Of a DNA stretch of 64,000 nucleotides, positions 3,937 through 61,957 are shown in pieces. Source of the stretch: Eledone cirrhosa (taxonomy: Eukaryota). The position numbers and the translations under genes are program-made. The notes beneath the pieces were generated by a model that saw only the letters and a program-made list of their open reading frames with translations, had not been told where the DNA came from and did not search any database. Where the stretch lies: NCBI GenBank assembly GCA_964016885.1, contig OZ024743.1, positions 279,992,001 through 280,056,000 of the forward strand, given 5' to 3'. Position 1 is the first letter of the stretch, and each line of letters begins with the position of its first letter.

Positions 3937-6004
3937 TCTTTCTTTATTTGCCACAGGGGCGTACACAAATAGGACATTACAAGACGTGACGGCGGGCGTT
4001 TTACATAAAAATAACTTTAACATTAATAAATAACAATAAACTATACATAATAAAATAACAATTGAAATCCCCAGTAGGGGGGAACGTTACTGCAGGGTTG
4101 TTTTACACCGCCGTGGATAGAACAACCCTCAACACCAGGAACACGTTTAGTAGGTGTTCCTGTCTTCCCTCTGTTTATCTTCCTCAACCTACAGGTTTAT
4201 ATACAGAGTAGGCCCATTCACTCGGGCCATTTTTGCCACATTCACCCACCTTTCAGCGAATTAACTGGGGTGTAGCACCCTCTCTCCACTCTCACATTCC
4301 TTATGAAGTGATACTTATAGAAGGGGATAAGTTGTTGTCCGGGGAGAAAGGTGTTTGCTCTAAGTCCTTTTAACGACGTCCACCATATTACCTCTTTCGC
4401 CATAGCCACCAGATAGAGGAAAACCGCCTCTCCGTTCTTAAATGAAGGCGGCGGATGATCCTCACGATAGACTCGGCTGACAACTGAATGCGTCCCACAC
4501 GTGACAGCAGCCGTTCGACATAATTCCACAGGTTGGTCACCCCTGGGCACTGAACAATTGCGTGCAGAACGGTTTTGATGTCCTGCTCGCATCTTGGACA
4601 GGTCCTTTTGGCAGGATCTCTGCCAGCGCGTCCGTGCCTGTAGATTTTGTCTCGAACTGGTAGAGCTCCTCGGTAGCACTGCCAGGCCAGAGACCTCTGG
4701 AATTTATCCATAGGCCCTGGACAGAAAGTCCTCCCGAACAGACTGGTCAGTTCGTCCTCCTCGATGCCTAGAGTTTCCCCGAGAACGTCGTCGCACTTAT
4801 CCTCCACTAATCCCCTATAGAATGTCGAAGTGGAGTCACCGCTGATTGCCGTTTCCGCTTGGTAGAGGGCTGTGAGCGCCTGTAGGCACTCGAGGTGCCA
4901 GGTAGCCATTTTCGGTCTTCGCTTGACCCAGAACTGCAGCTCTGTTAGTGAGACGAGTTGTGGAAGAGCTTGTCTCACAAACGACAGCCACACCGGTTCA
5001 CTGGTCAGGAATACCTGGAGTGGCTTAGCCTCAGCGGATGTTTGTGCATCATCAGCCACGGCATGCCCATCCCTCCGTTAGAAGGGTGTTGACTGCATAT
5101 GGATCTCCTCACCAATGGAGCCTGCTTCTTCCAGAGGAACTTGAAGAGTAGGCGTTCCATTTTGGTAAGGTATTCGTGGGGACAAGGCACGACTGTCAAG
5201 CGGTAATAGATGACGGACGCTATGTAAGTTTTCGCCACCTCGGCTCGACTTTTCAAGGAGAGTTTGCACTCAGGCCACTTCTGTATGAGTGCAAACACCT
5301 TCGCCGTGACCTCGTTCCAGTTCTTGTCTACCTAAAGGTTTGGACCCAACCAGACCCCGAGCAATTTCACCCGTCCATCCGTCCAGCGTACAGCGACACT
5401 GTCGAAAGGCATGGATTTGCCTCTCCATGTGCCGAGTTGCAAACCGACAGACTTGTTTGGGTTTAGTCTTGCTCCTGTCAACGTTTCGTATTCCTGTAAT
5501 AGGTTGCCGATTACCCTGATTTCCGAGGTTTTCGACACCATTACGGTTACGTCGTCGGCATAGGCTGACGCTGCTTTCCGCAGTCCTGGTTTGATCGAGA
5601 TGCCCAGCAACAACTCCAATTTCCGCAGTAACGGCTTGAGAGTCAGAACATACAGAATGGAGGAGAGAGGGTATCCCTGACGGATGGAACGCATGATTTG
5701 GAATGGCTCTGATAAGTAGCTATTCACCTTGTCTGCCGAGCAGATGCTGGTGTGCATGACAGCGATCCAGCCTCTGAAGACGGGACAGAAGCCGACCGCC
5801 TTGAGAACTGCTTCCAAGTATTGATGGTCGACCCTATCAAATGCCTTTGCGGAAGCCAGGTTTACACCCTACCCTCTCTATGATGTATCGCATGAGGTGG
5901 AGGTTGTCGTGTATGGACCTGGTCAGGATTGCACACGTTTGGGCTTCCCCTACCAGGTTCTCGACGACAAGCGCCAGCCTTGCTGCTAACACCTTGTATA
6001 ACAC
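3937..6004 (-). mobile_element. 5'-truncated Tx1/L1-clade non-LTR retrotransposon (RT + C-terminal CCHC), frameshifted
   Basis: Minus-strand frames give HDNLHLMRYII, SIRQGYPLSSILYVL, SAYADDVTV and CPRCEQDIKTVLHAIVQC. AATAAA lies at the 3' end (~3943-3948). Identical 22-bp CGAAAAGATAAATAGATAGATA at 3915-3936 and 6005-6026. Confidence 0.92.
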
Positions 6005-6091: not shown

Positions 6092-6502
6092 ATGGTGGCT
6101 GCCAACTCGTTTTCGAGTACGGCCACTACTTTATATCCATGTAGGAGTACTCCTACCGATGCGCTGAACGAGTGTGACTTTTTAGTCCAGCCAGCGACTT
6201 GAAAACTCTGGTACAAACACTACACTTGTGACAATTATTGACACAGTGCTGGGCCCATGGTAACATGTGACGACAAGTGCAGAGAGATCTCCAAATATAA
6301 AGCAATGCCTGTGCCGTGAAGGTTTTATAGTGAGCAAAGGCACTGCACAAAGCCAGTCCCACTCTCTTAATCAAGATGATATTTACCAAAAAGAAGAACA
6401 AGTCAACATCATTGGATACCATCAGGGTTGCAGGTGTTATATCAGAGTTTTCCTTCTCCTAGAATTCTGCCTTGACAAAGGCTAAGGGGTCATCTCTCCC
6501 GG
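6092..6502 (-). mobile_element. Non-autonomous RTE-derived element, 5'-truncated, inside (CATA)n
   Basis: Encodes an RTE-type C-terminal C2H2 (CSVCTRVFKSLAGLKSHTRSAH) next to an RTE 5'-UTR-like motif GGAGAAGGAAAACTCTGA. Near-identical to 61350-61760. (CATA)n on both sides. Confidence 0.75.
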
Positions 6503-6619: not shown

Positions 6620-9600
6620 TACTAGACAGCCAAGGCGATCAGTCGCATATTTTGGCGTGGGAGACTATTTATTAAATTTAAGATGAATACTATCTCCGAC
6701 AGTAATGCCACAACAACAGTCAGGTTGAATAACTGGTTATTCTTCTAACTATATCTTCTGTAGACACCTTTTATTCGAATTCGTAGAGATATCCGACTAA
6801 ATACATAATTCATTTTACAAGGATTTGCTACAAACAGCATGGCTGAACCCAACATTAACAAAAAAATTAAGGAAGTACCAAAGACAAATAACAAAGAAGG
6901 TAAACAAACTTTATTCAGTTCTAGCTACAGAAGAAACCGAAATTATAAATCGCATTTCTCTTGGAGTTGCGAACTTAAAAATGATTTATTTAATTGTTAT
7001 AAAATTTCAAAAAAGAATCCCTCCATTGGCTATATGAATAGAATGAAGCTACACTGGGACGAAATGCACCCAGAAGTATAAACAATTGAAAATTTCCCTC
7101 AACGAAATCTTCCAGAGAGAAATTAACTCATGTATAAATATCTCTCTTGCTGAACGTGTTATAACGACAATGTTGAATACAAAACCAAATAATGAAATAC
7201 TACGTGTTATTGACGAAATAAGGGATGAATATTTACGACGGATAAATACCCCAACATTTTGGCAAATCAACGCCTGTTTATATGCCCTAGCAGCGACAGT
7301 GAAACATTATCTTGGTGATAGCAGAGATATTAACCAGAACAAAACACCACCAAAAATACCATCATATATAACTAAAATAGAAAAAAAGAGACGATGTTTG
7401 GTAACAGTAGAACCAGAACTCTCCAATATAAGCTGATCACCCTCAAACAAGAATTGAGAGCTGTTAGCGAAAAACGCCGATACCTGAAGAAGGTTGATGA
7501 GGGAAAAATGCTTAATAAAAGATTCAGACGAAACCAAACATCAGTCTATAGATATATGAAGGGCAAAATAATAAGTGTCACTGAGGCCCCATCCCAGAAA
7601 GACATAGATTCCTTTTGGAGAAAAATATGGAGTGAAAAGAAGAATTTTAACCAAGATGGAGTGTGGCTAAGAGAAATCCGAAATAACTATTGCTCCTACA
7701 CTACAACAAAAACATACGAAATAAGTGAGGGTACCCTTGAGACTGTGATAAGAAAACTCCAAGATAAGAAAATACCAGGAAGAGACATAATTGTCGGCTA
7801 CTGGTACAAAAAACTGATATTCTATCGGAGGTAACTTACTGACCTCTACCAACAAGTTCTTAAGGGAGATACACTTATACCAGAATGGTTGACATGAGCA
7901 CAAACATTACTGGTCCCCAAGAACAAAGACACCCACTTGGTAAAAAACTACCGTCCTATTGCATGCCAGAACCTGATGTATAAGATGTATACAGCCTGCC
8001 AGAACCTATTCCTCCAAGATCACTGTGAAAATAATAATATCATCACAGATGAACACGCAGCTGGAAAGAAAGGGGTTTGGGGATGTGCTGAACAACTCCT
8101 AATCAACAAAACTGCAATGTCGGAGGTGCGACAACTTAGGAGGAATATGACTACAGTCTGGCTGGTCTACAGGAAAGCTTTCGATTCTGTTCCCCACTCT
8201 TGGATGATAGAGGCCCTCCAACTTGCTAAAGTCCCAGACATTATTGTCAGAGCCATAGAGAAGCTGTCTTCCTCTTGGGTTACTATCCTAAGGTTAAAGA
8301 CAGAGAGGGGGGACTCTATTTTCACTGATTAAATAAAATATTGCAGGGGTATATTTCAGGGGGACAGTCTCTCTGTGATATTATTCATCTTATATTATTC
8401 ATTAAACCCCTTGTCCTTTCTGCTCAAGAAATGTGAGGGATACATCATTGGCTCACAGGAGGACAGAAATACGAACCTAACCCATAATTTCTTTGTGGAC
8501 AATCTGAAACTCTATGCCAAGAACGTGGATGGGATGAAGAAAAATCTTGACCTGGTTACAACGTTCTCAAAGGATATAGGAATGGAGTTTGGCCAAGATA
8601 AATGCTCATACATGACTGTAAAGTGGGGAAAACAACAACCTAATCTAGCAAAATTGTCATCAATGGTCTAACTGTTTCACCGATATCTGATGAGGACTGC
8701 TATAGAGACCTGGGGATAGATGAGAACATATCCTATAATGGTATCTGTAATAAAGAACGCGTAACCAGGAAATACTACACCCGATTAAGAAAGATTTGGT
8801 CATCGGAACTCTTTGCGCAAAACAAAACAGTGGCTCACAATGTGTTTTCTGTGCCTGTCCTAACACCAACGTTTGGAATACTCAATTGGACGATAGACGA
8901 AATCCGAGCAGTTGATGTTGGAACTCGAAAAATACTGAACAACACCGGAAACTTCCATATCAACAGTGACATAGACCGCCTTTACTTGAAACGTAAGCAG
9001 GGAGGCAGAGGCCTAACATCAGTCCAGACAACATTTGAATGTCGCATCATATCTCTCCGACAACATCTACGAACCTCGAATCGTAGGAGCCCGTTTCTCG
9101 AGCAAGTCTATCTGCATGAAACAGATAAGATCATGAGAGTTGGGAAGGAACTCCTTGAGAGATATTCCCTGTGTGATAATCAAAACTCACACCCAGGGAT
9201 GTCGCTCAGCAGTATCGCAGTGAATCCATGGATGAAAAACTGCATGCTTATCAGCAAAATATCATGCATGGATATGTTGTCAGGAAGCTCCAGAGTGAGA
9301 GTAATATAGATAAGGAAAGTAGTCTATCTTGGACCAACAACCGCTATATTGGCTCCCACTTTGAAGGATACGCTTTTGCAATCCAAGAACAGGAGATTAA
9401 CACGAAATACCTGATTCACAAAAGAGATAGGGATGCAGGCAAAACACCTAGATGTGATAACAAGTGCAGACTCTGCAGAAATAACATCGAGGATATCACC
9501 CATGTCATCAGCAGCTGTCCAAAGATGTCATCGCGGTACTATCTACCTATGAGGCATGATGTAGTGGCCAAAACACTGTACAATGCATTTCGTAAAAAAG

Positions 9601-10268
9601 ATAGCCCCGATAATAAACACATTAAAAGCTACAACAATGTGGAAGACATCCATGTACATAATATGAAAGAGTACTGGTGGAATGTTCCAGTAAAAACCCC
9701 AATAAAATGCAGGCATAACAGACCCGATATTATGATATGGGACAGGGAGAAGAAAGCATGCACAGTAGTAGAAATTAACTGCCCAGCAGATGCCAATATA
9801 ATATCAAAGATTAGTGAAAAGGAGAATATTTATGCAGAACTGATGAGAAATCTGTAGATAATCCACTCTGATTACACCTTCAGATTTATGCCTGTGATTA
9901 TTGGGGCACTGGGATATGTTAGTAACTGCCTCAATACAAATCTTGAGCAGCTAGGCTTCACAGGAACAGAAAAAACACCACTAGTTAGGAAATTACAATC
10001 CATTAATCCATTAATGGAACAGTAAAAATATGTAAAACATTCCTAAAATGTTGCATCTAATAACTGCATATACACATTCACATGCACACATACAACTCAA
10101 AAATACACATCCACACATAAAATAACATCCATATCTACACGTGCATGCATACATACATATCTACCTAGTTGATGTTGTGTAAATTCCAATGAGAGATTCT
10201 TGTGTCTATTTTAGAAACCGACTCTCTCTCTATTGGTAAAACTTTGTGAAATTATAAAACCAGAAGAA
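6620..10268 (+). mobile_element. R4/Dong-like non-LTR retrotransposon (RT + zinc knuckle + restriction-like endonuclease), disrupted
   Basis: Successive frames give NYRPIACQNLMYKMYT, GCAEQLLINK, KAFDSVPHSW, GIFQGDSLS, THNFFVDNLKLY, CRLCRNNIEDITHVISSC, RHD and HNRPDIMIWD...VVEINCP, with several stops and frameshifts. The 3' UTR matches 56505-56666. 5' boundary approximate. Confidence 0.9.
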
Positions 10269-17174: not shown

Positions 17175-17610
17175 TTTAATTCCGTAATAGCACCACCAAC
17201 TACAAAAACAAAGACGGTTGAACTGCTTTACGTTGAGTACTCTCTATATTATTGCATTACGATTGACCATACGGAATAGACCAGCTCTATACAGTGGTGA
17301 ACCTCAAACCTGAATAAATAATGCTCCTGAAATGTTGAGCACTTCAAAATGTAATAATCAACAGCGGCATGGGACTGAATATATCTAACCACAATTCGAA
17401 CTTTGGCTACCCGGTGTTTACGCCTGGCCCTTTGCTACTCCCCTCACAGAATATCCTAACTTCGACGAAACTCCACGGACTAGACCATAACATGTATTGT
17501 ACTGCACTGTATTAACTAAATGGCTACCCTATACTTCTGGGCATGTATAACTCACACTGAACTCCCAGACTCGAACCCACACTATTTCCACATCTATATG
17601 CATTATCTGA

Positions 17611-18330
17611 CTGCAACTTGAACTATATTGTATTTCTCCTGTGTCTTGAACTCTCCATTTAATAGACAACGACTCTTGTTTGTTTATTTATATCTTTACA
17701 TCTTTATTTGCTGTATTAATGCTCCTCCACGTATTCTACCTCTATACATCCATGTACTTTCTACTTCCCTTATTCGGACTTTTACTCGCGTGTACCCTTA
17801 GCACACGTCACTGGAATATCTCCCCCTGGGAACATAAATACCGCAACCTGAACTATAGTGTATTTCTCCTGTGTCTTGAACTCTACATTTACTAGACAAC
17901 GACTTTTGTTTGTTTATCTATATCTTCACATCTTTGTTTGCTGTATTAATGCCTTTCCACGTACTCTACCTCTATACATCCATGTACTTTTTACTCCCCT
18001 TATTCGGACTTTTACTAGCGTGCACCCTTAGCACACGACACAGAATTGCCCCCCCCCCCCCCTCCACACCCGGGAACAAAAATACTGCAACCTGAACTAT
18101 ATTGTAATTCTCTTATGTCTTGATTTCTCCATCTTACTCCAACACCACTCTTGTTGGTTTATTTACATGTTTATACCTATATTGATATGTTTATATATTT
18201 ATACCTCTGCTGTACCAATGTGCTCTTCCACGTATTCCACTTCCATGTATCCATGTATTTCTACTCCTCACATTGGGACCTGTACCCATTAGCACACGAC
18301 ACTAGAATGTCTCCTCCTGAGAACAAAAAT
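17611..18330. repeat. Three tandem ~230-245-bp units
   Basis: GCAAC(T/C)TGAACTATA(T/G)TGTA...TTAGCACACG restarts at ~17611, ~17841 and ~18085. Confidence 0.9.
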
Positions 18331-18567: not shown

Positions 18568-19537
18568 TTAAGCAAAATTCTAAAGTTCCAACTTTCGGAC
18601 CGTTGGGTGGGTTTGGGCGGCGGCGCGACCGGCTCCCTGGCGAACGAGCTCACCTGGAGTGCTTGTAAAAATAAATTTCCCCTTCTTTCGGTAAATGAAA
18701 ATACTCGGCGTGACTTAGTTCGCCATGGGGCCCGGGGCGCGGCCGGTGTTTTAACCGCCAAATAGTACCTTTAAATTACAGAACAAATCGGAACTATTAG
18801 ATATATCAACCTGAAACTGTTGAGCTTTGAATTTTCTAACCTCTTTAATATGGAATATTGATTACTAATTTTTTAACTTCATCCTATAAGTCTAAACATT
18901 GTAACACACTGACCCCCAATATATTCACCTCTGCTATGATGCGGGTCCCTGTGAAAATTTTGTCGCGCCACTCCTGGCCCGACTGTGGTGTGACATTAAT
19001 ATCGACCTTCCTTCTTGTAGCTATCAACCATTACTCTTTTACTTCTCTAAGCAAAATTTTAAAGTTCCAACTTTCTGTCGGACTGTTGGGTGGGTTTTAA
19101 TGGCGGCGCGACCAGCTCCCTGGCGAACGAGCCCACCTGGAGTGCTTGGAAAAATAAATTTCCCCTTCTTTCAGTAAATGAAAATACTCGGCGTGGCTTA
19201 ATTCGCCATGGGGCCCGGGGCGCGGCCGGTGTTTTAACCGCCACATAGTACCCTTAAATTACAGAACAAATCGGAACTATTATATAATAAAATGTTAAAC
19301 TGTTGAACTTTAAATTTTCTAACCTCTTTAATATTGAATATTGATTATTGAAATTCTTTTAGCTTCATCCTAGAAGTCTAAACACTGTAACACACTGACT
19401 CCCAATATATTCACCTCTGCTAAGATGCGGGTCCCTGTGAACATTTTCTCGCGCCACTCCTGGCTTGACTGTGGTCTGACATTAATATCGACCTTTCTTC
19501 CTTCTTGTAGCCATCAACCCTTACTTTTCTACTTCTC
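18568..19537. repeat. Two tandem ~480-bp units with a GC-rich core
   Basis: AGCAAAATT.TAAAGTTCCAACTTTC...GGCGGCGCGACC.GCTCCCTGGCGAACGAGC...CGCCATGGGGCCCGGGGCGCGGCCGG at ~18570 and ~19050. Confidence 0.92.
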
Positions 19538-19927
19538 TCTTCTCTTCCTTCTCTTCTCCCCTCTTCCTGTCTTCCTCCCGCAGACTTATCTTCCTTCCCC
19601 CTCTTGCTTGCCTATATCTGACCGGTAGTAGTTGCCTTTCTTCTTTTAGCTGACATTAACCCTGGCTTCTCTTCTTCTTTCTTCCCCCTTCTTCTCTCTC
19701 CTTCCTTTCTCTCTTTCTTTTACCTTGTGTCATGAGATCGACGTTAACTTATGCTCCCATCCCTTTCTGTTTTCGTTTATCTGACCTGTAGTAGCATACT
19801 ATAAACTTTAGCCACGTCACTCCAGGGCGACCGGCTGAGGTTGAAGGAACAGAATAGCGGTCGCCCTCGGGTCCCCGATTTTCAGCCCCATGGATTTTAT
19901 CTAGTACATTCACGTATTATATTTCGA

Positions 19928-21242: not shown

Positions 21243-21458
21243 AGAAAGGAAAGATTTTGCAGTTATGTATTGGCACGGAAGCCTGATTAAAAAATTCTCA
21301 TATTCTTTTTTTTGTTCATCTTTTCCAAACATAATACTGAAAGCATAAATACCACATGAAATTAGTATAGAGGAAAATGTGATGTATTTACTATTTTTCG
21401 CTAGGTGGTGAGTGGTTAATCAAATATTAATAATAACTACTGATACATTATACATGCT

Positions 21459-21499
<41 letters not shown>

Positions 21500-21785
21500 A
21501 TATATTGTGCTCCTGTCCTCTATAAGGGTTTCTCATATATATATATATAGGAAAATTGTCATATTCCTTTTTTTCTGTTAATGTTTTTCAAACATAATAC
21601 TGAAAGCATAAATACCACATGAAATTATTAGTATAGAGGAAAATCTGATTTTCCTCTATACTAATTTCATGTGGTATTTATGCTTTCAGTATTATGTTTG
21701 AAAAACATGAACAGAAAAAAAGGAATATGACAATTTTTTAATCAGGCTTCCGTGCAAGTAAATAACTGCTAATGCTTTCCTTTCT
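21243..21785. repeat. Direct copy plus near-perfect foldback of one ~140-bp sequence
   Basis: CAAACATAATACTGAAAGCATAAATACCACATGAAATT...AGTATAGAGGAAAAT at ~21327 and ~21589. The second copy folds back about centre 21646 (GAGGAAAATC-T-GATTTTCCTC). Confidence 0.9.
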
Positions 21786-22857
21786 ATATATATATGGGAT
21801 ACATTCGCTGTATAATATACGGTAGTCTCTTCATATTATGGTGATAGCCTGGCTTCAATGTATGTACCTTGCCTATGTGGATTACATCCAGTATGATTTT
21901 GAGACTGAGTGGCGCGTGGAACCTAGGGACAGCTGGGGATTGTGTATAGTTTTTCCTATCTCATTGTATCCTACGTAGCTTCAATTTTGATACTAACTTC
22001 ACTAGCATGGATGGCTACGAATACATGACATGTTACGACACCAGCTGGCTAGGGGTACCCTTCTAGCTGCACTCGGGCGACTGGGTCTATCCACCCCCTT
22101 GAGTGCTTGGAAATAAACTAAATTTCACTTTTCTACGGTAAACCATAATTACTCGGAACGGTAGGTGGACCTTGGGGCCATGTGTGTGTTGGGAGTCACC
22201 TATCTCAGCTGTTGTTAACCGCCATACCTTACTACTATCGTAATTTAATATAATTGAACATTGAACTATGGGGGGAATCCGAAGCGGATAGCAACTGAGC
22301 TTAGCTTAACTAACATTGTGTTATTTGTCTTATTAGGTCCCTGATTTACACAACTCTATAATTGATATCATTAACGTCTACTTATTTAAACAGTCAGCTT
22401 TAACTTTCAATTCCTTAAATAACTCCAACTTATATACATTTCTAACCGGAATGTTTCTCTACTTGATATGTTCCTGGGTCACCACCCCACCCCCTCGTAT
22501 GTTCTACGCTTTCCGTGAGTGCATATCTTAGCTTGACCCAGGGCAATTACCATTCTCTGTAAAACGATATTCTCCCCCTCTCTGGCCTGCTGTCCGAAGG
22601 CTGCTGGAGTTGAAGGGTAGTTTTGATTCGCCAAGTAAACTGTACACTCCCCTATCCGCTTAGTAAACTAACAGGAAAGATTTGTTTAAAATAACCTCAC
22701 TTAGAGGCGGGCGAGCAATATGGCAGCATGCTACTACGTCGTCTCTGGGTCAAAAACATAGCACACACTTTTTCCTCTTTGATTTTTTTTCTTTTTTTTT
22801 GGCTTGTTTCCTTAAAGTTTACCATCATTCCGTTGCTATACATCTATTAAGCAATTT

Positions 22858-22915
22858 ACACCTGATGAGGTCACCGGGTTCTTAAACAAAGAGGTCACTG
22901 AAATGTACATTGTGT
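22858..22915 (+). ncRNA. Minimal type I hammerhead ribozyme
   Basis: Stem I ACAC/GTGT; CTGATGA; stem II GGTCACC...GGTCACT with a C.C mismatch; GAAA; T-GTAC-A palindromic stem III; AUU triplet (cut after 22911). Confidence 0.8.
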
Positions 22916-23082
22916 CTGCAGAAATATTCGTAAATATAACCATTATGAAATAGACTCAATATCTGCTGAAGAACTGTTGGGGTCTGTCTGAAGACGAATA
23001 TACGGACTGAGAAACAATTGTGCCTAAATAACACCACACGCCCTAATCCCAGATTGAGTACTCTCCAAAACACCTCTCGCAG

Positions 23083-23174
<92 letters not shown>

Positions 23175-23219
23175 GTGAAGGGGTGTAGTAATAAAAGATC
23201 ATTAATATAACATAATATA

Positions 23220-23352
23220 TATTAACTTTGGCTTTCATCCTTCATCTTTAACGATGTTAACTTTGCCTTTCATCCTTCCGGGGGTCGATAGAATAAAGTA
23301 CCAGTAATGCATTGGGTAATTGCTGGCCTTGTGCCAAAAGTAGAAACAATTA
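23220..23352 (+). mobile_element. SINE 3' part with a partial internal duplication
   Basis: AACTTTGCCTTTCATCCTTCCGGGGGTCGATAGAATAAAGTACCAG...GGCCTTGTGCCAAAAGTAGAAACAATT. Confidence 0.8.
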
Positions 23353-23690
23353 ATATAATATAAATATAATAAGTATATAAGCTTTGAAAAACAAAATCTT
23401 ATAAGGTACAATACGGACTGAATATAATATGGTAAAAAGGAATAAAAGTAAAGAGGGAAATTATTAGAAAAAAATAAGGAAAACATAATAAGAAATGAGA
23501 AAAATTGGGAAAGGCGTCCAGTATAACAAGAAAATACGTTATATATTAGAACATGTAACAAATATACAACTATATATGTGCTTTACGTAACATAAAAAAA
23601 TATAGATAAAACAGATGCATATACCATGAGAAATATATGAAGGATAAAATAAAATAAGTAACGGAAATGCAGGTGAATATTATATATATA

Positions 23691-24102
23691 TGTATACATA
23701 TATGTATGTACGTATACATACATACTTACATTTAAGTAAGTGCCATACTAAGAGTGAGAAATGAAATTTCGTTTTCATTTTTTTTCAACTTATCGTTTTC
23801 GGTATGCCTGACCGATTTAACTCACTCAATATGCAAATTAGGCTGCTCAGCCGTTAATTTTCATAAGAAAAGTATATACTTTCGAACGTTCAACTATCTG
23901 GCAGATGGGTATACGGTACTGATGATAGCTAACAAGCTTGAAACTAGTACATCGTTCCTGTGTCAGTGTTGAACAAAAAGGTGACGTGGTTGCCTGAACA
24001 ATGTACGGCGTAAATTCAGGCTGTTCAGATTGTTTACAAACGAACAAAGCGCCGTTATAATAAGCGTCCGCTAAACTGATGCGTGCATATATGTATGTGT
24101 AC

Positions 24103-24189
<87 letters not shown>

Positions 24190-24302
24190 TACTAATGTAC
24201 GTCTGTATACATATATGGATGTACGTATACATATATACTTACATTTAAGTAAGTGCCATACTAAGAGTGAGAAATGAAATTTCGTTTTCATTTTTTTTTC
24301 AA

Positions 24303-24307
<5 letters not shown>
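23691..24307 (+). mobile_element. Retrozyme-like unit: ~100-bp direct terminal repeats around an HHR
   Basis: TACTTACATTTAAGTAAGTGCCATACTAAGAGTGAGAAATGAAATTTCGTTTTCATTTTTTT..CAACTTAT at 23723-23793 and 24236-24307; HHR at 23913-23955. Confidence 0.7.
23913..23955 (+). ncRNA. Minimal type I hammerhead ribozyme
   Basis: ACGGTA-CTGATGA-T-AGCT(AACA)AGCT-T-GAAAC-TA-GTA-CATCGT. Palindromic ACTAGT stem III, GUA triplet, stem I has one mismatch next to the core. Confidence 0.72.
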
Positions 24308-24398
<91 letters not shown>

Positions 24399-24486
24399 TG
24401 TGTGTGTGCCGATACTTTAATATATACATTTATATTTACATATTATGTGCCTGTGTGTGTATTTGTGTATATAGATATAGTTATAG

Positions 24487-25134: not shown

Positions 25135-25332
25135 AGAGAGCAAACAGCACGGACACTCTATCTCAAAATTATTTTTGAAAAGCATTTAGAAATGCGCAAC
25201 CGGTAAAAACTTAAAAACTTAAAACCACAACTGAATACTAACCCATACAATCACTAATACTCTTTTATTCCTAATTAAACCATTTTTCAACTGTGAACAA
25301 TTTGTCAGCATTTTCTATTCCGTTTACCAATA
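25135..25332 (+). mobile_element. Short dispersed element carrying a variant hammerhead (UUGAAAA...GCAA core) at 25172-25208
   Basis: TTT-TTGAAAA-GCATT(TAGA)AATGC-GCAAC-CG-GTA-AAA. Copies at 31417-31453(-), 31759-31795(+), 46020-46055(-) and 46879-46914(+). Confidence 0.7.
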
Positions 25333-31262: not shown

Positions 31263-32207
<945 letters not shown>

Positions 32208-42267: not shown

Positions 42268-42572
42268 TATATAAAGAAAAAAAGATGGAATCGAAAATGC
42301 AACTGGAGTCTTATTTAAAAAAAAATATATATATTTATTTGGTTCCTTTACCGGTTTCGCAGTTCTTTGCTTTTCAAAAGTAGAGTTGAGATGGAGGGTC
42401 TGTGGTTTTTCTTACATCACCAGATGTGAGAAAAACCACAGACCCTCCATCTCAACTCTACTTTTGAAAAGCAGAATAACTGCGAAACTGGTAAAGTAAC
42501 GAAATAAATATATATATATATTTTTAAATAAGACTCCAGTTGCATTTTCGATTTCATCTTTTTTTCTTTATA
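42268..42572. mobile_element. ~300-bp foldback carrying two opposed hammerheads
   Basis: Near-perfect inversion about 42419-42422; HHRs at 42344-42382(-) and 42459-42498(+). Confidence 0.88.
42459..42498 (+). ncRNA. Minimal hammerhead ribozyme, U3:A8 variant
   Basis: TACTT-TTGAAAA-GCAG(AATAA)CTGC-GAAAC-TG-GTA-AAGTA with a perfect 5-bp stem I. The inverted partner has GAAAC-CG-GTA (palindromic ACCGGT). Confidence 0.78.
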
Positions 42573-44126: not shown

Positions 44127-44781
44127 AGTTTAGGTATGATACATTTTATTACTAATTATATCTAAATGTTTCTTCTCTCTTCATAATGTATTTTTAACTC
44201 TGATACTGGTTCAGTCTAGTTCAAACTGAATTGGTCTGTCCCAGTCATTCATTGAGCAACATCGGTGAAGTTGGCACCCTTAACTCACAGTTGGGTGCGG
44301 ATGCATTCATGTATATATGTGTGTGTCCGCATGTATCTGTGTGTTTCTAAATATATTGTTAATAACTCCCTCTGGTCGAGCAATCTTTGAGGTGTGGGGA
44401 CAACTGGAAAGCTTCCATTACTCATACTTCTCGCCTTCTTCACTACCTCTTCTACGGCCTCGATATGAATACCCCCTCCGCCTCCGTGGTATTTTCTTCG
44501 TGGTTATAGGAGGCTTAGCTCTGTTTCTCGACCGTTATATCGCGTGACTATCTCCCCCTCCGCCTTTTGGGATTCTTTCTCACGTCGTGTAGACGCGTTC
44601 TTGAGACTAGTAAAATGAGGTATCCTCTTGATAAGTCGGCAGACCTCGCAGGGACTCTATATCTTTGATATATTGTTTTTGTTTATGCCACGAAACTACG
44701 TAGTCGAGGAATTTAGGAGCAGTTTAGGTATGATACATTTTATTACTAATTATATCTAAATGTTTCTTCTCTCTTCATAAT
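44127..44781 (+). mobile_element. Retrozyme-like element: 61-bp identical direct terminal repeats, 594-bp unit, internal HHR
   Basis: 44127-44187 is identical to 44721-44781; flanked by TA repeats; no credible ORF; HHR at 44623-44710. Confidence 0.8.
44623..44710 (+). ncRNA. Type I hammerhead ribozyme, U3:A8 variant
   Basis: TCCTC-TTGATAA-GT(C)GGCA...TGCCAC-GAAAC-TACGTA-GTC-GAGGA. Perfect 5-bp stem I, palindromic stem III, GUC triplet (cut after 44705). Confidence 0.82.
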
Positions 44782-45475
44782 ATATATATTAATATATATT
44801 TTTATGTGTATTTGGTGTATACGTTCGTATGTGTGCGGGTACAGGCGTTGCGTGGGTTCTGTATGTTCGTGCGTGTTTTTTTTTGTGCACGTGCTTGTAT
44901 TTGCATACCCATGGCGAGTGTTTTCGCGTATGCTTGTGTACGTACGTATATGGATGCGTGTATGTATATATTTAATTTCAATTACCACTGTATTTTATTT
45001 ACTTTATTCTTAACTCTGAAGCCGAGAATCATTCGGTTTCCTAGATAGAATGTTAGTCTACGACTTCAGTTATACCATTTACGTTGTTTTGTCTTTGCGG
45101 GTAATTGTTTTCTTCGCTCTACATAATGACGTATTATCTTCGTTTTTTTCCGTTCATTGCCAGAGAACGTCTCCATGAACCACCTAATAGAATATTAGTC
45201 TACGTCTTTATTTATACCATAAATGTGGTTTTGTCTTTGCGTGTAATTGTTTTCAACGTACCAAATTATGACGTATTATCTTCGTTTTTTTTTCGTTCTT
45301 TGCCAGGGAACGTTTCCACGAACCAAAGTATCGTCTTCCTGTCTTCCTTCGGTTGCAACGTTTTTTTTTTATATTTACTCCTGCGTTCACAGATTGACTT
45401 TTTTAGCTTCAGAAGATCCCGTTCAGGGTGAAAGCAACGATTCTTTGCTTAAACTTTAATCTGCTATTTTAATAA

Positions 45476-45700: not shown

Positions 45701-45745
45701 ACTGCCTTGATAACTGACCATCAGTCAGAAACGACCGTCGGTAGT
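45701..45745 (+). ncRNA. Minimal hammerhead ribozyme, U3:A8 variant
   Basis: ACTGCC-TTGATAA-C-TGAC(CATCA)GTCA-GAAAC-GACC-GTC-GGTAGT; 6-bp stem I with one G.U pair. Confidence 0.75.
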
Positions 45746-45904: not shown

Positions 45905-45911
<7 letters not shown>

Positions 45912-46489
45912 TAAAAGGAAAAGAAAATGCTGACAAATTGTTCCCAGTGAAAAATAGTTTAATTAGGAATAAGTAAGAATTAGTAGTAGTATTGGTTAGT
46001 ATTCAGTTTTGGTTTCAAGTTTTACCGGTTGCGCATTTCTAATGCTTTTCAAAAATAATTTTAAGATAGAGCGCCCGTGATGTTTGCTCTAATCTGATTA
46101 GTTTTGGAAATTCTACCTGTTTTATGTAAAAAAAAATGGCTCCAGATGTATGAAAAAATTATTGTGGTAATAACAATTTTGATTGGTCGGTAGAGGTTAT
46201 ATGAATGTTAAAAATTGATTTTGCGCCAAACGTAGGTTTGTCTCGGCTGATTGAGAAGTCACTGAAAAATAAGTCTTTCAAGACAAATATGTGTGTGTGT
46301 GTGTGTAGTAGTAGTAGTAAAGAGGTTCGTTGTTGTGATAATGGTGAGCAGGGATGTGTCTGCGAACCGCAGCCTGCTGACAGGTCAACAGTTCAAAGAG
46401 CTGAAAAATATCTTTTAACATGTTAAAATATCACCCACACACGTACAGAACATTCCTACTGACCGATCCCTCTACCACTAATTACTCTG

Positions 46490-46532
<43 letters not shown>

Positions 46533-47030
46533 TCTTAATAGGCATTTGAACTGTTGACCTGTCAGCAGGCTGCGGTTCGCACACACATCCCTGCTGACCA
46601 TTATCACAACGACGAACCTCTTTACTACTACTACACACACACACATATTTGTCTTGAAAGACTTATTTTTCAGTCACTTCTCAATCAGCCGAGACAAAGC
46701 TACATTTGGCGCAAAATCCATTTTTAACATTCACATGATCTCTACCGACCAATCAAAATTCTTTTGACCACAAGAATTTTTTCATACATCTGGTGCCACT
46801 TTTTTTACATAAAACAGGTAGAATTTCCAAAACTAATCAGATTAGAGCAAACATCACGGGCGCTCTATCTCAAAATTATTTTTGAAAAGCATTAGAAATG
46901 CGCAACCGGTAATACTTAAAACCAAAACTGAATACTAACCAATACTATTACTAATTTTTACTTATTCCTAATTAAACTATTTTTCACTGGGAACAATTTG
47001 TCAGCATTTTCTTTTCCTTTTACCAATATA
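45905..47030. mobile_element. ~1.1-kb inverted duplication (arms ~490 bp) of the GCAA-hammerhead element
   Basis: 45905-46397 is inverse to 46545-47030 with a ~150-bp spacer; (TA)n on both outer sides. Confidence 0.9.
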
Positions 47031-47061
47031 TCATAACTCGTGTGTTACACCTCTATTCTTT

Positions 47062-50300: not shown

Positions 50301-51251
50301 TCTTCATTTTCAGGAAAAATAACTAAGCTTACTGCATTTACTAACACTGCAATCATCACCTCCACTGTCACTAAGACAACCACCACGACAACCACCACCA
50401 TCATCATGGTTGTAATTGCTACCACCATAGAGGCAATGTAAGAGATTTACGTGGTCGATCATCATGCTAGAAATAGTAGCCAAAATCTCCCTGAATCGAC
50501 TTAGAAAAGAACACAGAACACGTGGAATAATATACTCTTAGGTACATTGCACAACTGAAAAAGATGGAATGATCACGGCTGGATTGTCTTTGATATCATA
50601 GATCTTCTAGATTAGGAATGATTTTTGAAACAACAACATTACTAAGATCATCATCATCATCTTTAATAACATGATTATCAAAACTAATAACTTCACCAAC
50701 ATCATCAACATCTCCACCATCATCATCATCATCAATAGCAACATCATGGACATTATCACCCCTATCATTACCTACACCACCATTATCGCCAATATCAACA
50801 CTACCAACATAACCAACACATATAACTAATATTATCAGCATCATCTGCATCATCATCGATATACCCATCACCATCCCCACATCACCTTTTAACCTTACCA
50901 ACTCCATCAGCATCAACACTAACATCAACACCAACACCAATATCATCAACATCATTCAGCAGCATCAAATCATAACTAGGAATTTGATGATAGTGATTTC
51001 GATACGACAGGCATACTCATGATACTGATGTAAAAATACGTCATATCTTAGATAGATAGGTAGGTAATCAGAGAGAGAGAGAGGGGGATGGGGAGAGAGA
51101 GAGAACGTGAGATGTATATATAAATATATATATATATAGTAATATATAATGAACTGGCCTAAATCTTAGCTATTATTTACTTTTAACAACCCCTGTCATT
51201 TTCGTTTAACAACTTTATTAAGAGACACAAAAACAAAGAAAAGAATCCCCA

Positions 51252-51294
51252 GTCACTGAAGAGGTCACAGAATGTGTGACGAAAGAACTTTGAC
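51252..51294 (+). ncRNA. Minimal hammerhead ribozyme
   Basis: GTCA-CTGAAGA-G-GTCACA(GAATG)TGTGAC-GAAAG-AA-CTT-TGAC. Confidence 0.75.
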
Positions 51295-51919
51295 AATATA
51301 TGAACAACCGTCAGGTTGTGGAACCAACCAACCAACCGGAAATTTATAAATTCTTAAATTTATAAATTTAATTTATAATAAATTGAAGTGAAAGCAACTG
51401 GTGCGTGTGTTTCAACTGGTGCGTGCGTGTGGCAACATGACCCTCCCAAAGCATAACAATGACTTTATTTACATTATTCTCAAACTCCGGAGCTGAGAAT
51501 CATTCGGTTATTCTAAATAGATTCTAGTCTAATGAATCCATTTATACTTAATCTTTCTAACTTTTATTTTTTGTTTAAAGTCTAGATTTATATTGTTAAG
51601 TTACAATGAATTGCTTTTTTAAAACAATTGTTTTACTTCGTCATTTATTCCATAGACGTGTTTTTGCCTTTGCGTGAAATTATTCTCAGCGCTCCACATA
51701 ACGACGTAATTATCCTCGCTCTTTTCCCGTTCATTGCCAGGGAATGTCTTCACGAACCAAAGTATCGTCTTCCTGTTTTCCTTCGGTTGAAGCATTTTTC
51801 GAAATATTTGCTTCTGCGTTCACAGATTGATTTTTCTTTTTAGTTTCAAAAGATGCCGCTAAGGGTGAAAGCAGCGATTTTTGCTTAAACTTTAATCTGT
51901 TATTTTAATAAATTAATAA

Positions 51920-52156: not shown

Positions 52157-52521
52157 ATAATAATAAATTTGAAGACTAAAATCCAAAGAGGGCTCGATAA
52201 GGATAAATATATATCAAATATATAAGAACCGTAGAGCAAATATTTTATATTATATTTTATTTGATGAAAGCGCACCATAGTTTGCCTTGGTGGCCCTTGA
52301 AATATGTATAATGAAATAAATATGGTTTTATAAATATAGTTTCCATTTGTTAATATATTTTATATATATATATATATATATTGTTATACTTTGGGAGGGT
52401 CAAGAAACACACGCACCAATTGTTTTCATTCCAATTTATTATAAATTAAATTATAAATTTAAAAATTTATAAATTTCCAGTTGGTTTGTTGGTTTCACAA
52501 CCGGACGGTTGTTCATATATT

Positions 52522-52564
52522 GTCAAAGTTCTTTCGTCACACATTCTGTGACCTCATCAGTGAC
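52522..52564 (-). ncRNA. Minimal hammerhead ribozyme (inverted copy of 51252, CTGATGA core)
   Basis: Reverse complement reads GTCA-CTGATGA-G-GTCACAGAATGTGTGAC-GAAAGAACTT-TGAC, within 52380-52580, which is inverse to 51235-51460. Confidence 0.77.
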
Positions 52565-52809
52565 TCTGGGTTCTTTTCTTTGTGTTGTGCCTCTCCTTTG
52601 TTCTGTCCTACGCCATCTTGTTTTTGTGTGTGTTGTGTGCTTAGTTTGCGCATGTGTTACATTCTGGTGTCTGTGTGTGTTTCTATTTGTTTATTTATTT
52701 GTTTATTTACATGTTACTGGTTGGTTGTTTGTTCTATGTGTGTGTGTTTTCATTTTGTTCTTAATAGTAAGTTGTGATGTTGCTATTCCATTCATGTTTT
52801 CTATTTAAA

Positions 52810-53205
52810 ACACTTATTAGTAATACATACCTTTTTCAAAGACCTCCCTGTGTAGATAAGAAATGCATAATCTGTAAACTAAGCCCCCATATTAACTGTA
52901 AAACTAGAAAAATAGTATATAGCATAAGATGTACTGAAGGACAATGTAAAGATAAGAATATAGTGTACATAGGTGAGACAGCTCGTAGTATAGGAGAACG
53001 ATTAAATGAACACTGGCGAGTACTTCAAGATAGAAAAGAATCCTCAGTACTCCACCAACATGCTAAAATAGAACATAAGTGCAAATTAGAGAACATAGAA
53101 ATAAAAATAAAATCTACACACAGAAAAGACACAATGTTTAGACAAATCACAGAGGCAATAAACATAAGTGTACTCCAACCAAAATTAGATAAAGAATCTT
53201 GCTAA
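52810..53205 (+). pseudogene. Penelope-like element C-terminal GIY-YIG endonuclease (5'-truncated fragment)
   Basis: Open frame PCVDKKCIICK...CKTRKIVYSIRC...VYIGETARSIGERLNEH...SVLHQH...RQITEAINISVLQPKL: Cys-rich linker plus the GIY-YIG motifs typical of PLEs. No RT upstream. Confidence 0.9.
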
Positions 53206-61349: not shown

Positions 61350-61353
<4 letters not shown>

Positions 61354-61957
61354 TGGCTGCCAACTCGTTTTCGAGTACGGCCACTACTTTATATCCATGT
61401 AGGAGAACCCCTACCGATGCGCTGAACGAGTGTGACTTTTTAGTCCAGCCAGCGACTTGAAAACTCTGTTACAAACACTACACATGTGACAATTATTGAC
61501 ACATAGTGCTAGGCCCATGGTACCATGTGATGACAAGTGCAGAGAGATCTCCAGATATAAAGCAATGCCTGTGCCGTGAAGCTTTTATAGTGAGCAAAGG
61601 CATGCACAAAGCCAGTCCCACTCTCTTAACCAAGATGATATTTACCAAAAAGAAGAACAAGTGAACATCATTGGATACCATCAGGGTTGCAGGTGTTATA
61701 TCAGAGTTTTCCTTCTTCTAGAAGTCTGCCTTGACAAAGGCTAAGGGGTCATCTCTCCCGGTGATTTTAGATGGCCATTGACTCTTAAGAGCTCCTTTGC
61801 CCTTTGACAGGTTTTGTTTTTAGTCCTGCAGGATGTCCAAAGTCACCCTCCTCACCAAGAAACGTTGGTGGGGTTGCCAGTTTAGTCGCCAACGACCCGA
61901 CCATGAGACAGGTTGTACTGGGATACATGTTACCAGTAGCACCAACTGGTGACCTGA
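61350..61957 (-). mobile_element. Apparently full-length (~610 bp) non-autonomous RTE-derived element
   Basis: RTE-like 5' region (GGGTCGTTGGCGACTAAACTGGCAACCCC; GAAGAAGGAAAACTCTGA) joined to a C2H2-coding 3' end and a CTCGAAAACGAG hairpin; TA repeats on both sides. Confidence 0.72.

Follow-up and report, generated by a model that had tools for sequence, protein, structure and literature searches.

A 617-bp non-coding stretch set between TA repeats, within a 64-kb window (the whole stretch of DNA analysed), holds 1.2 units of a 513-bp sequence and one hammerhead ribozyme (HHR), which is located mid-unit and outside the duplicated part. On the best reading this is a known kind of element, which would work like an animal non-LTR retrozyme, a class in which solo copies are common. 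On balance, it appears to be a solo copy of a non-autonomous retrozyme-like element, likely reverse-transcribed from circular RNA by the enzymes of Penelope-like elements (PLEs) and inserted in (TA)n. The anatomy of the locus, its single HHR and its TA flanks are observed directly, as is the fragment of a PLE endonuclease elsewhere in the window, and every step of the cycle proposed below is deduced.

Repeats, unit and flanking TA tracts

The locus is composed of the following parts.

23682..23690, no strand: left flank, a short alternating TA run in the sequence; likely insertion target, masking any target-site duplication
23691..23793, + strand: left direct repeat, 103 bp, from the alignment
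23691..24203, + strand: inferred monomer, 513 bp (433 bp without the TA tract), 31% GC
24106..24185, no strand: internal (TA)40 tract
24204..24307, + strand: right direct repeat, 104 bp, the terminal redundancy; its last 3 nt overlap the flanking TA run
24305..24394, no strand: right flank, (TA)45, the start of a ~5-kb TA-rich array

The initial annotation had described direct repeats of about 100 bp lying about 513 bp apart, with an internal TA expansion of about 80 bp. The alignment bears this out: the two repeats (23691-23793 vs 24204-24307) agree at 101/104 columns (97.1%) at a spacing of 513 bp, and the tract measures exactly 80 bp, its "expansion" being an interpretation. Of the three differing columns, two are substitutions, both within the first ~35 bp, which resemble a microsatellite, and the third is an additional T in a poly-T stretch. 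Over the other 69 bp the repeats show zero substitutions (E 7e-30 within the window), and beyond its first ~35 bp the left repeat is unique sequence with a small hairpin and the poly-T.

Both ends of the locus abut alternating TA, and 8 nt of it on both sides was found in only 72 of 56560 comparable window segments. The right junction has 3 nt in common with the TA run (24305-24307) and the left junction lies within the element's own TA-rich segment. Both junctions fall in TA runs, which would mask a target-site duplication. In the available literature, the target-site duplication of non-LTR retrozymes is longer than 4 bp when present.

The size and GC content of the unit (513 bp, 31%, below 50% GC) lie inside published retrozyme ranges: within the 51-972 bp of bioRxiv 10.64898/2026.07.22.740005, and, with the TA tract included, above the 150-450 bp of PMC7229834. 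A monomer circle is predicted to be 68% paired, a figure inflated by the TA tract; the non-microsatellite core folds modestly (z -2.0, 1/60 shuffles as good). The monomer's one ORF of at least 90 aa outside TA arrays has no match in Pfam, and no tRNA was found in the 513-bp monomer. Two of its six frames were searched as protein in large protein sets: the + frame 23736-23972 gave no candidate, and the single match of the - frame 23850-24086 (28% identity, E 4e-4) was rejected as too distant to be a copy.

No further copy of the unit and no third copy of the repeat occurs in the 64-kb window. The HHR pattern and a 21-nt repeat pattern had 0 matches each in GTDB contigs and the unit had no match in phage and plasmid collections; like the protein sets, these collections are no fair test for an animal repeat. 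The single-copy result leaves the family status of the unit unproven rather than refuted.

The window as a whole is AT-rich and microsatellite-dense and contains no N. A Pfam scan covered 43 of its 144 ORFs of at least 90 aa, mostly-microsatellite ORFs being left out. Two broken LINE reverse-transcriptase regions with zf-RVT domains are present (4391-5868, - strand; 7898-9854, + strand), and one LINE reverse transcriptase has relatives at 50-69% identity and fish proteins at 36-39%, which marks the DNA as animal; its composition may be that of a cephalopod-like genome. Tandem repeats that carry no hammerhead by the descriptors form a dimer at 18569-19538 (479 bp, 90%), a trimer at 17610-18330 (230 bp) and a dimer at 45040-45325 (143 bp). 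A 410-bp repeat, 96% identical between 6094-6502 and 61352-61761, sits in (ATAC)n arrays and has a weak C2H2 zinc-finger match on the - strand. At 21243-21785 a nested direct (261-bp spacing) and inverted duplication surrounds a TA run. A dispersed SINE-like repeat (23220-23364) lies between a hammerhead core at 22.86k and the unit, with related copies near 1011, 10509, 10703, 11211, 13314, 36951 and 60573.

The hammerhead ribozyme

The HHR and the hairpin that contains it are made up as follows.

23888..23974, + strand: predicted extended helix I hairpin; 17 distal pairs, outermost 7 bp 23888-23894 / 23968-23974, UAU bulge 23910-23912
23913..23955, + strand: type I HHR motif of canonical dimensions, helix I 23913-23918 / 23950-23955
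23919..23925, + strand: catalytic core CUGAUGA
23926..23939, + strand: helix II, a U·U at its base, 3 Watson-Crick pairs and the loop UAACAA, which ends in A
23940-23942, + strand: GAA
23943..23948, + strand: palindromic helix III ACUAGU; in a monomer, 1 bp plus a CUAG loop
23949..23950, + strand: predicted cleavage site after GUA, N17 = A23949 (numbering by the established HHR convention)

An HHR at 23913-23955 with a palindromic ACTAGT stem III and a mismatch in stem I had been noted in the initial annotation. The core, helices and GAA are all located on the + strand, and the mismatch is A23918·C23950 at the base of helix I. Three features were absent from that annotation: a second non-canonical pair beside the core (U23926·U23939, the basal pair of helix II), the continuation of helix I far beyond the motif, and the presence of only one HHR at the locus, the next best 43-nt match in the whole window being 25/43. 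The HHR forms the tip of a longer hairpin, in which helix I runs past the UAU bulge into a rod reaching 23888/23974. With the interval picked after the hairpin had been seen, 3/1000 flank shuffles reach the energy of the extended helix I and 44/1000 its pair count.

The dimensions of the HHR agree with those of the canonical metazoan type I motif (helix I of 6 bp, helix II of 4 bp, helix III of 1-2 bp with a palindromic loop; PMC4209133) and not with the minimal Penelope-type. The bases of the contact pair between helix I and loop II, U1.7 and the terminal A of loop II (PMC11875169), are both present, U1.7 at 23956. A strict HHR descriptor gave one match in the window and none in 100 block-wise dinucleotide shuffles, and a looser one gave 6 matches vs a mean of 0.27 in 200 shuffles (47/200 had at least one); both descriptors were composed after the motif was seen. 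At the gathering score, Rfam has no match in the whole window, and its hammerhead families have none at E<=10 over 22500-24400. On a 131-nt slice the only match is Hammerhead_HH9 (12.1 bits, E 2.1, gathering 52), with the bulge of this model aligned to the UAU bulge. The miRNA matches of the Rfam E-value scan were driven by microsatellites and were discarded as composition artefacts.

The 43-nt HHR shows no clear excess of folding over shuffles (z -1.74, 13/200 fold as well), and its minimum-energy fold differs from the hammerhead. The cleavage-competent fold is predicted to be 6.1 kcal/mol less favourable than the ensemble, in a calculation that had no positive control and ignores tertiary contacts, because 23916-23921 would pair with 23945-23950. 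When the base of helix I is paired in silico the gap narrows and still amounts to 2.3-3.6 kcal/mol. The RNA of the present copy is predicted to misfold. For two copies, a 6-bp helix III duplex is predicted at -4.8 kcal/mol.

HHR_Amex2, the ribozyme of an axolotl retrozyme, naturally has a U·U as the basal pair of helix II; its cleavage is weak as a monomer and good in dimeric form (PMC7229834). Because the repeats have barely diverged, the U·U of the present HHR was likely inherited. The A·C mismatch could be one later hit or could likewise be inherited; the 69-bp parts of the repeats have no substitution, and two post-insertion hits falling at the mismatched positions are therefore unlikely. 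Apart from the Amex2 precedent, the expected effect of the two non-canonical pairs on cleavage is a matter of general knowledge, and no literature on G10.1-C11.1 mismatches was found.

Proposed origin and alternative explanations

In the proposed cycle, tandem source copies elsewhere would be transcribed by read-through. The weak palindromic helix III would lead two neighbouring HHRs to cleave as a dimer after GUA, freeing monomers of ~430-510 nt, which a host RtcB-type ligase would close into circles. A PLE GIY-YIG endonuclease would nick (TA)n, and priming by the reverse transcriptase on the circle would use a TA microhomology of ~3 nt (24305-24307). The enzyme would then make one full turn, crossing the cleavage site, by then resealed, and continue for another ~103 nt, stopping in the element's own TA-rich segment and there rejoining the target. 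Since the locus has a terminal redundancy and its HHR lies inside the unit and outside the repeats, the template must have had an intact cleavage site and 103 nt twice; judging from the sequence, it would have been either a circle copied for more than one turn or a multimer that had escaped cleavage.

A unit-length RNA cannot be cut out of the locus, because it comprises 1.2 units with one HHR. With this one HHR and an RNA predicted to misfold, the present copy is probably a dead end, and the insertion, which belongs to a known kind of mobile element, is likely inactive. Active retrozymes are recognized by at least two consecutive HHRs (bioRxiv 10.64898/2026.07.22.740005); the locus was tested for this and has one, for which reason it is not filed as an active retrozyme. 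In Xenopus, eight of nine predicted retrozyme dimers showed no in vitro cleavage (bioRxiv 10.64898/2026.07.22.740005). The term "retrozyme-like" in the initial annotation is fair for the likely mode of working, but the locus itself falls short of the two consecutive HHRs of an active retrozyme. Back-junction reads would need other, tandem copies, because the present locus has one HHR.

A second insertion in the window has a comparable layout.

44127-44785, + strand: 44.1k unit, with its HHR at 44622-44711

It consists of one unit with a 65-bp terminal redundancy at a spacing of 594 and carries a single HHR, which is of type I and has a palindromic helix III. The core of this HHR, UUGAUAA at 44628, is of the U3-A8 covariant kind; its helix II region spans 57 nt, its helix III (44695-44704) is a perfect palindrome of 10 nt, and GUC marks its cleavage site at 44705. 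On its left the insertion is flanked by TA, on its right by a TA run that is shorter and imperfect, and no TA tract lies between unit and repeat. The two insertions have in common their TA-rich flanks and a single unit to which a short terminal duplication is added (103 vs 65 bp). The initial annotation saw no similarity between the two, in keeping with the 79/200 (+) and 191/200 (-) shuffles that score equally high. Its proposal that the same retrozyme-like architecture occurs in a second family stands as regards the layout, which is the same in unrelated sequence, and is unproven as regards the family, of which the window holds a single copy. The 44.1k unit folds far above shuffles (z -6.8, 0/60) and, by this modelling, is the stronger circular-RNA candidate of the two.

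A PLE endonuclease sequence lies 29 kb from the 513-bp unit.

52804-53190, + strand: PLE GIY-YIG endonuclease fragment with a CxxxxCxxC linker

It shares 35% identity with the endonuclease at the C-terminus of a longer protein with RT motifs, and is a fragment rather than an intact element. When two PLE proteins (the C-terminal RT part plus the endonuclease) were used as tblastn queries against the window, only 52804-53190 was significant, and it is by this fragment that the genome counts as one with autonomous PLEs. The CxxxxCxxC linker has been hypothesised to drive (TA)n targeting (PMC8557442). The 513-bp unit has no sequence link to the fragment or to the other HHR elements of the window (the 22862 core, a 51.2k element and the 44.1k unit).

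The fragment is preceded by an inverted HHR-bearing segment (52477-52594, -), which recurs at 51221-51339 (+), and a TA run comes after the fragment. Another family, with five copies of ~190-220 bp, adjoins TA runs at 25137-25329 (+), 31296-31488 (-), 31724-31942 (+), 45909-46090 (-) and 46844-47059 (+). It has a U3-A8 hammerhead-like core with GCAA replacing GAAA in 5/5 copies and, in two copies, a ~30-bp 3' extension like a PLE tail. An inverted U3-A8 hammerhead pair with intact GAAA, at 42349-42377 (-) and 42464-42493 (+), is related to this family, and one more U3-A8 motif is situated at 45707-45739 (+). Degenerate or minimal PLE-type hammerhead cores are found at 22862-22915 (+), 22988 (+) and 3135 (+), the first with an 8-nt palindromic helix III.

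Among known systems, the metazoan non-LTR retrozymes of coral, mussel and axolotl (Cervera and de la Peña, 2020, PMC7229834) share with the unit a non-coding, low-GC sequence of a few hundred bp and a type I HHR of canonical form whose palindromic helix III is weak. Both are without PBS, polypurine tract (PPT) and true LTR, and in both cases PLEs are present in the genome. The unit's helix III, 1 bp closed by a palindromic tetraloop, is as in HHR_Amex1 and the U·U as in HHR_Amex2 (PMC7229834). Those retrozymes form tandem dimers to 62-mers with an HHR per unit and proven circles (PMC7229834), whereas the present locus has 1.2 units and one HHR and is known from sequence alone; it differs also in the A·C at the base of helix I and in the internal 80-bp TA tract. 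Solo retrozymes have been described as non-autonomous PLE derivatives, scattered copies of one unit being common and interpreted as offspring unable to transpose (Li, Clavereau and Pollet, 2026, bioRxiv 10.64898/2026.07.22.740005). In that work a monomer is recognised by its homology to a family that includes active tandem copies, whereas the present unit is known as a single copy. The available text of that preprint (bioRxiv 10.64898/2026.07.22.740005) does not describe terminal redundancy or TA flanks of monomers.

The foremost alternative, which we regard as possible though doubtful, is a non-autonomous PLE made from linear RNA. The element would then be 23794-24307, with a fixed 3' end, and 23691-23793 would be a 5'-truncated second copy from the same event (a pseudo-LTR, or pLTR); no circle would be needed and the HHR may only trim precursors. 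PLE insertions are typically partial tandems with a truncated copy before the full copy and a (TA)n bias, and non-autonomous pLTR versions exist (PMC8557442). Animal retrozymes have themselves been proposed as pLTR derivatives (bioRxiv 10.64898/2026.07.22.740005), and the window contains the PLE endonuclease fragment and several PLE-type HHR cores. PLE pseudo-LTRs resemble the unit in their type I HHR, partial tandem arrangement and (TA)n targets that hide target-site duplications (PMC4209133; PMC8557442). However, most metazoan pLTRs have a minimal HHR with a helix II of 7-8 bp, a helix I of 4-5 bp and no helix III (PMC4209133), whereas the HHR of the unit is canonical, with a helix II of 3 bp plus U·U and the loop-contact bases. 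It also lies outside the duplicated segment, while pLTR HHRs lie inside theirs, and neither an RT or GIY-YIG ORF nor another PLE protein remnant was found beside the unit by the Pfam scan or by tblastn with the C-terminal RT part and the endonuclease. At a single locus the circular and linear templates leave an identical trace; the difference is whether 3' ends vary among copies.

Less probable, and in our view unlikely, is that the repeats are separate from the HHR element, as two independent short-repeat insertions in a TA array, a local duplication, or a long target-site duplication around a ~410-bp insert. This would fit the 80-bp TA tract between the HHR segment and the right repeat, with 24186-24307 bounded by TA on both sides. 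It would also fit the abundance of TA arrays (8.5% of the window in runs of at least 4 TA) and the local duplications at 17610-18330 and 18569-19538, which are free of HHRs by the descriptors. Nevertheless, the layout recurs in the 44.1k unit, where no TA tract intervenes, and the left repeat passes into the HHR segment without a seam or microsatellite. Two independent insertions 513 bp apart are improbable because no third repeat copy occurs in 64 kb.

A small LTR-type element with LTRs of ~100 bp (a TRIM, or an LTR retrozyme as in plants), or a rolling-circle element of the Helitron kind with a chance HHR, has very little probability. Internal microsatellites and subterminal hairpins occur in Helitron-like repeats and count for the Helitron reading; the TC...CTRR ends of Helitrons were not seen on inspection. 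For the LTR type, the repeat begins with TG and has CA 6 nt before its end, but the identity continues 6 nt beyond the CA. Neither a PBS (TGG-type, after the first repeat) nor a polypurine tract (before the second) is found on either strand, and a 4-bp target-site duplication is absent at the unit ends. Plant LTR retrozymes are similar in having a non-coding HHR-bearing stretch between direct repeats, but they carry a type III HHR in each LTR of 300-400 bp, a PBS, a PPT and a 4-bp target-site duplication (PMC5680766), whereas the unit has none of these and its HHR is type I and outside the repeats. The LTR-type reading is already largely refuted.

That the hammerhead is a chance match in AT-rich DNA is the least credible reading: it would account for the Rfam scores below threshold, the two non-canonical pairs beside the core and a minimum-energy fold that is not a hammerhead, but the strict descriptor found nothing in 100 shuffled windows, the loose one is expected 0.27 times per 64 kb and ~0.002 times in the 410-bp interval, and the helix I extension provides independent support.

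Significance for retrozyme integration

Type I hammerheads by the thousand and numerous solo copies of retrozymes are reported from single animal genomes (PMC7229834; bioRxiv 10.64898/2026.07.22.740005), and because of this abundance a single locus is ordinary. How retrozyme RNA returns to the genome, and by which enzyme, is still treated as a hypothesis in the literature (bioRxiv 10.64898/2026.07.22.740005; PMC7229834; PMC7761336). The value of the present locus is its footprint, since one unit plus an overhang with a mid-unit ribozyme is what a circular template predicts. The spread of junctions across copies would separate a circular template from a PLE-type partial tandem, and a genome assembly alone would suffice for this. 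No description of 1.x-unit copies with permuted junctions was found in the available portions of the retrozyme and PLE literature. Cephalopod retrozymes have no report among the literature matches listed, which does not establish their absence from print.

More speculatively, insertions of 1.1-1.2 units, such as the present one and the 44.1k unit, might directly record, in the genome, how circular RNA served as the template of target-primed reverse transcription. Among copies across the genome, the junctions would then be permuted along the circle, with a bias to the element's own TA-rich segment, which would serve as (TA)n priming and landing homology and seed new microsatellites, and several unrelated HHR families in one animal genome would behave in this way side by side. 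If this tentative idea is true, the integration step of retrozymes, so far hypothetical, becomes testable from sequence alone.
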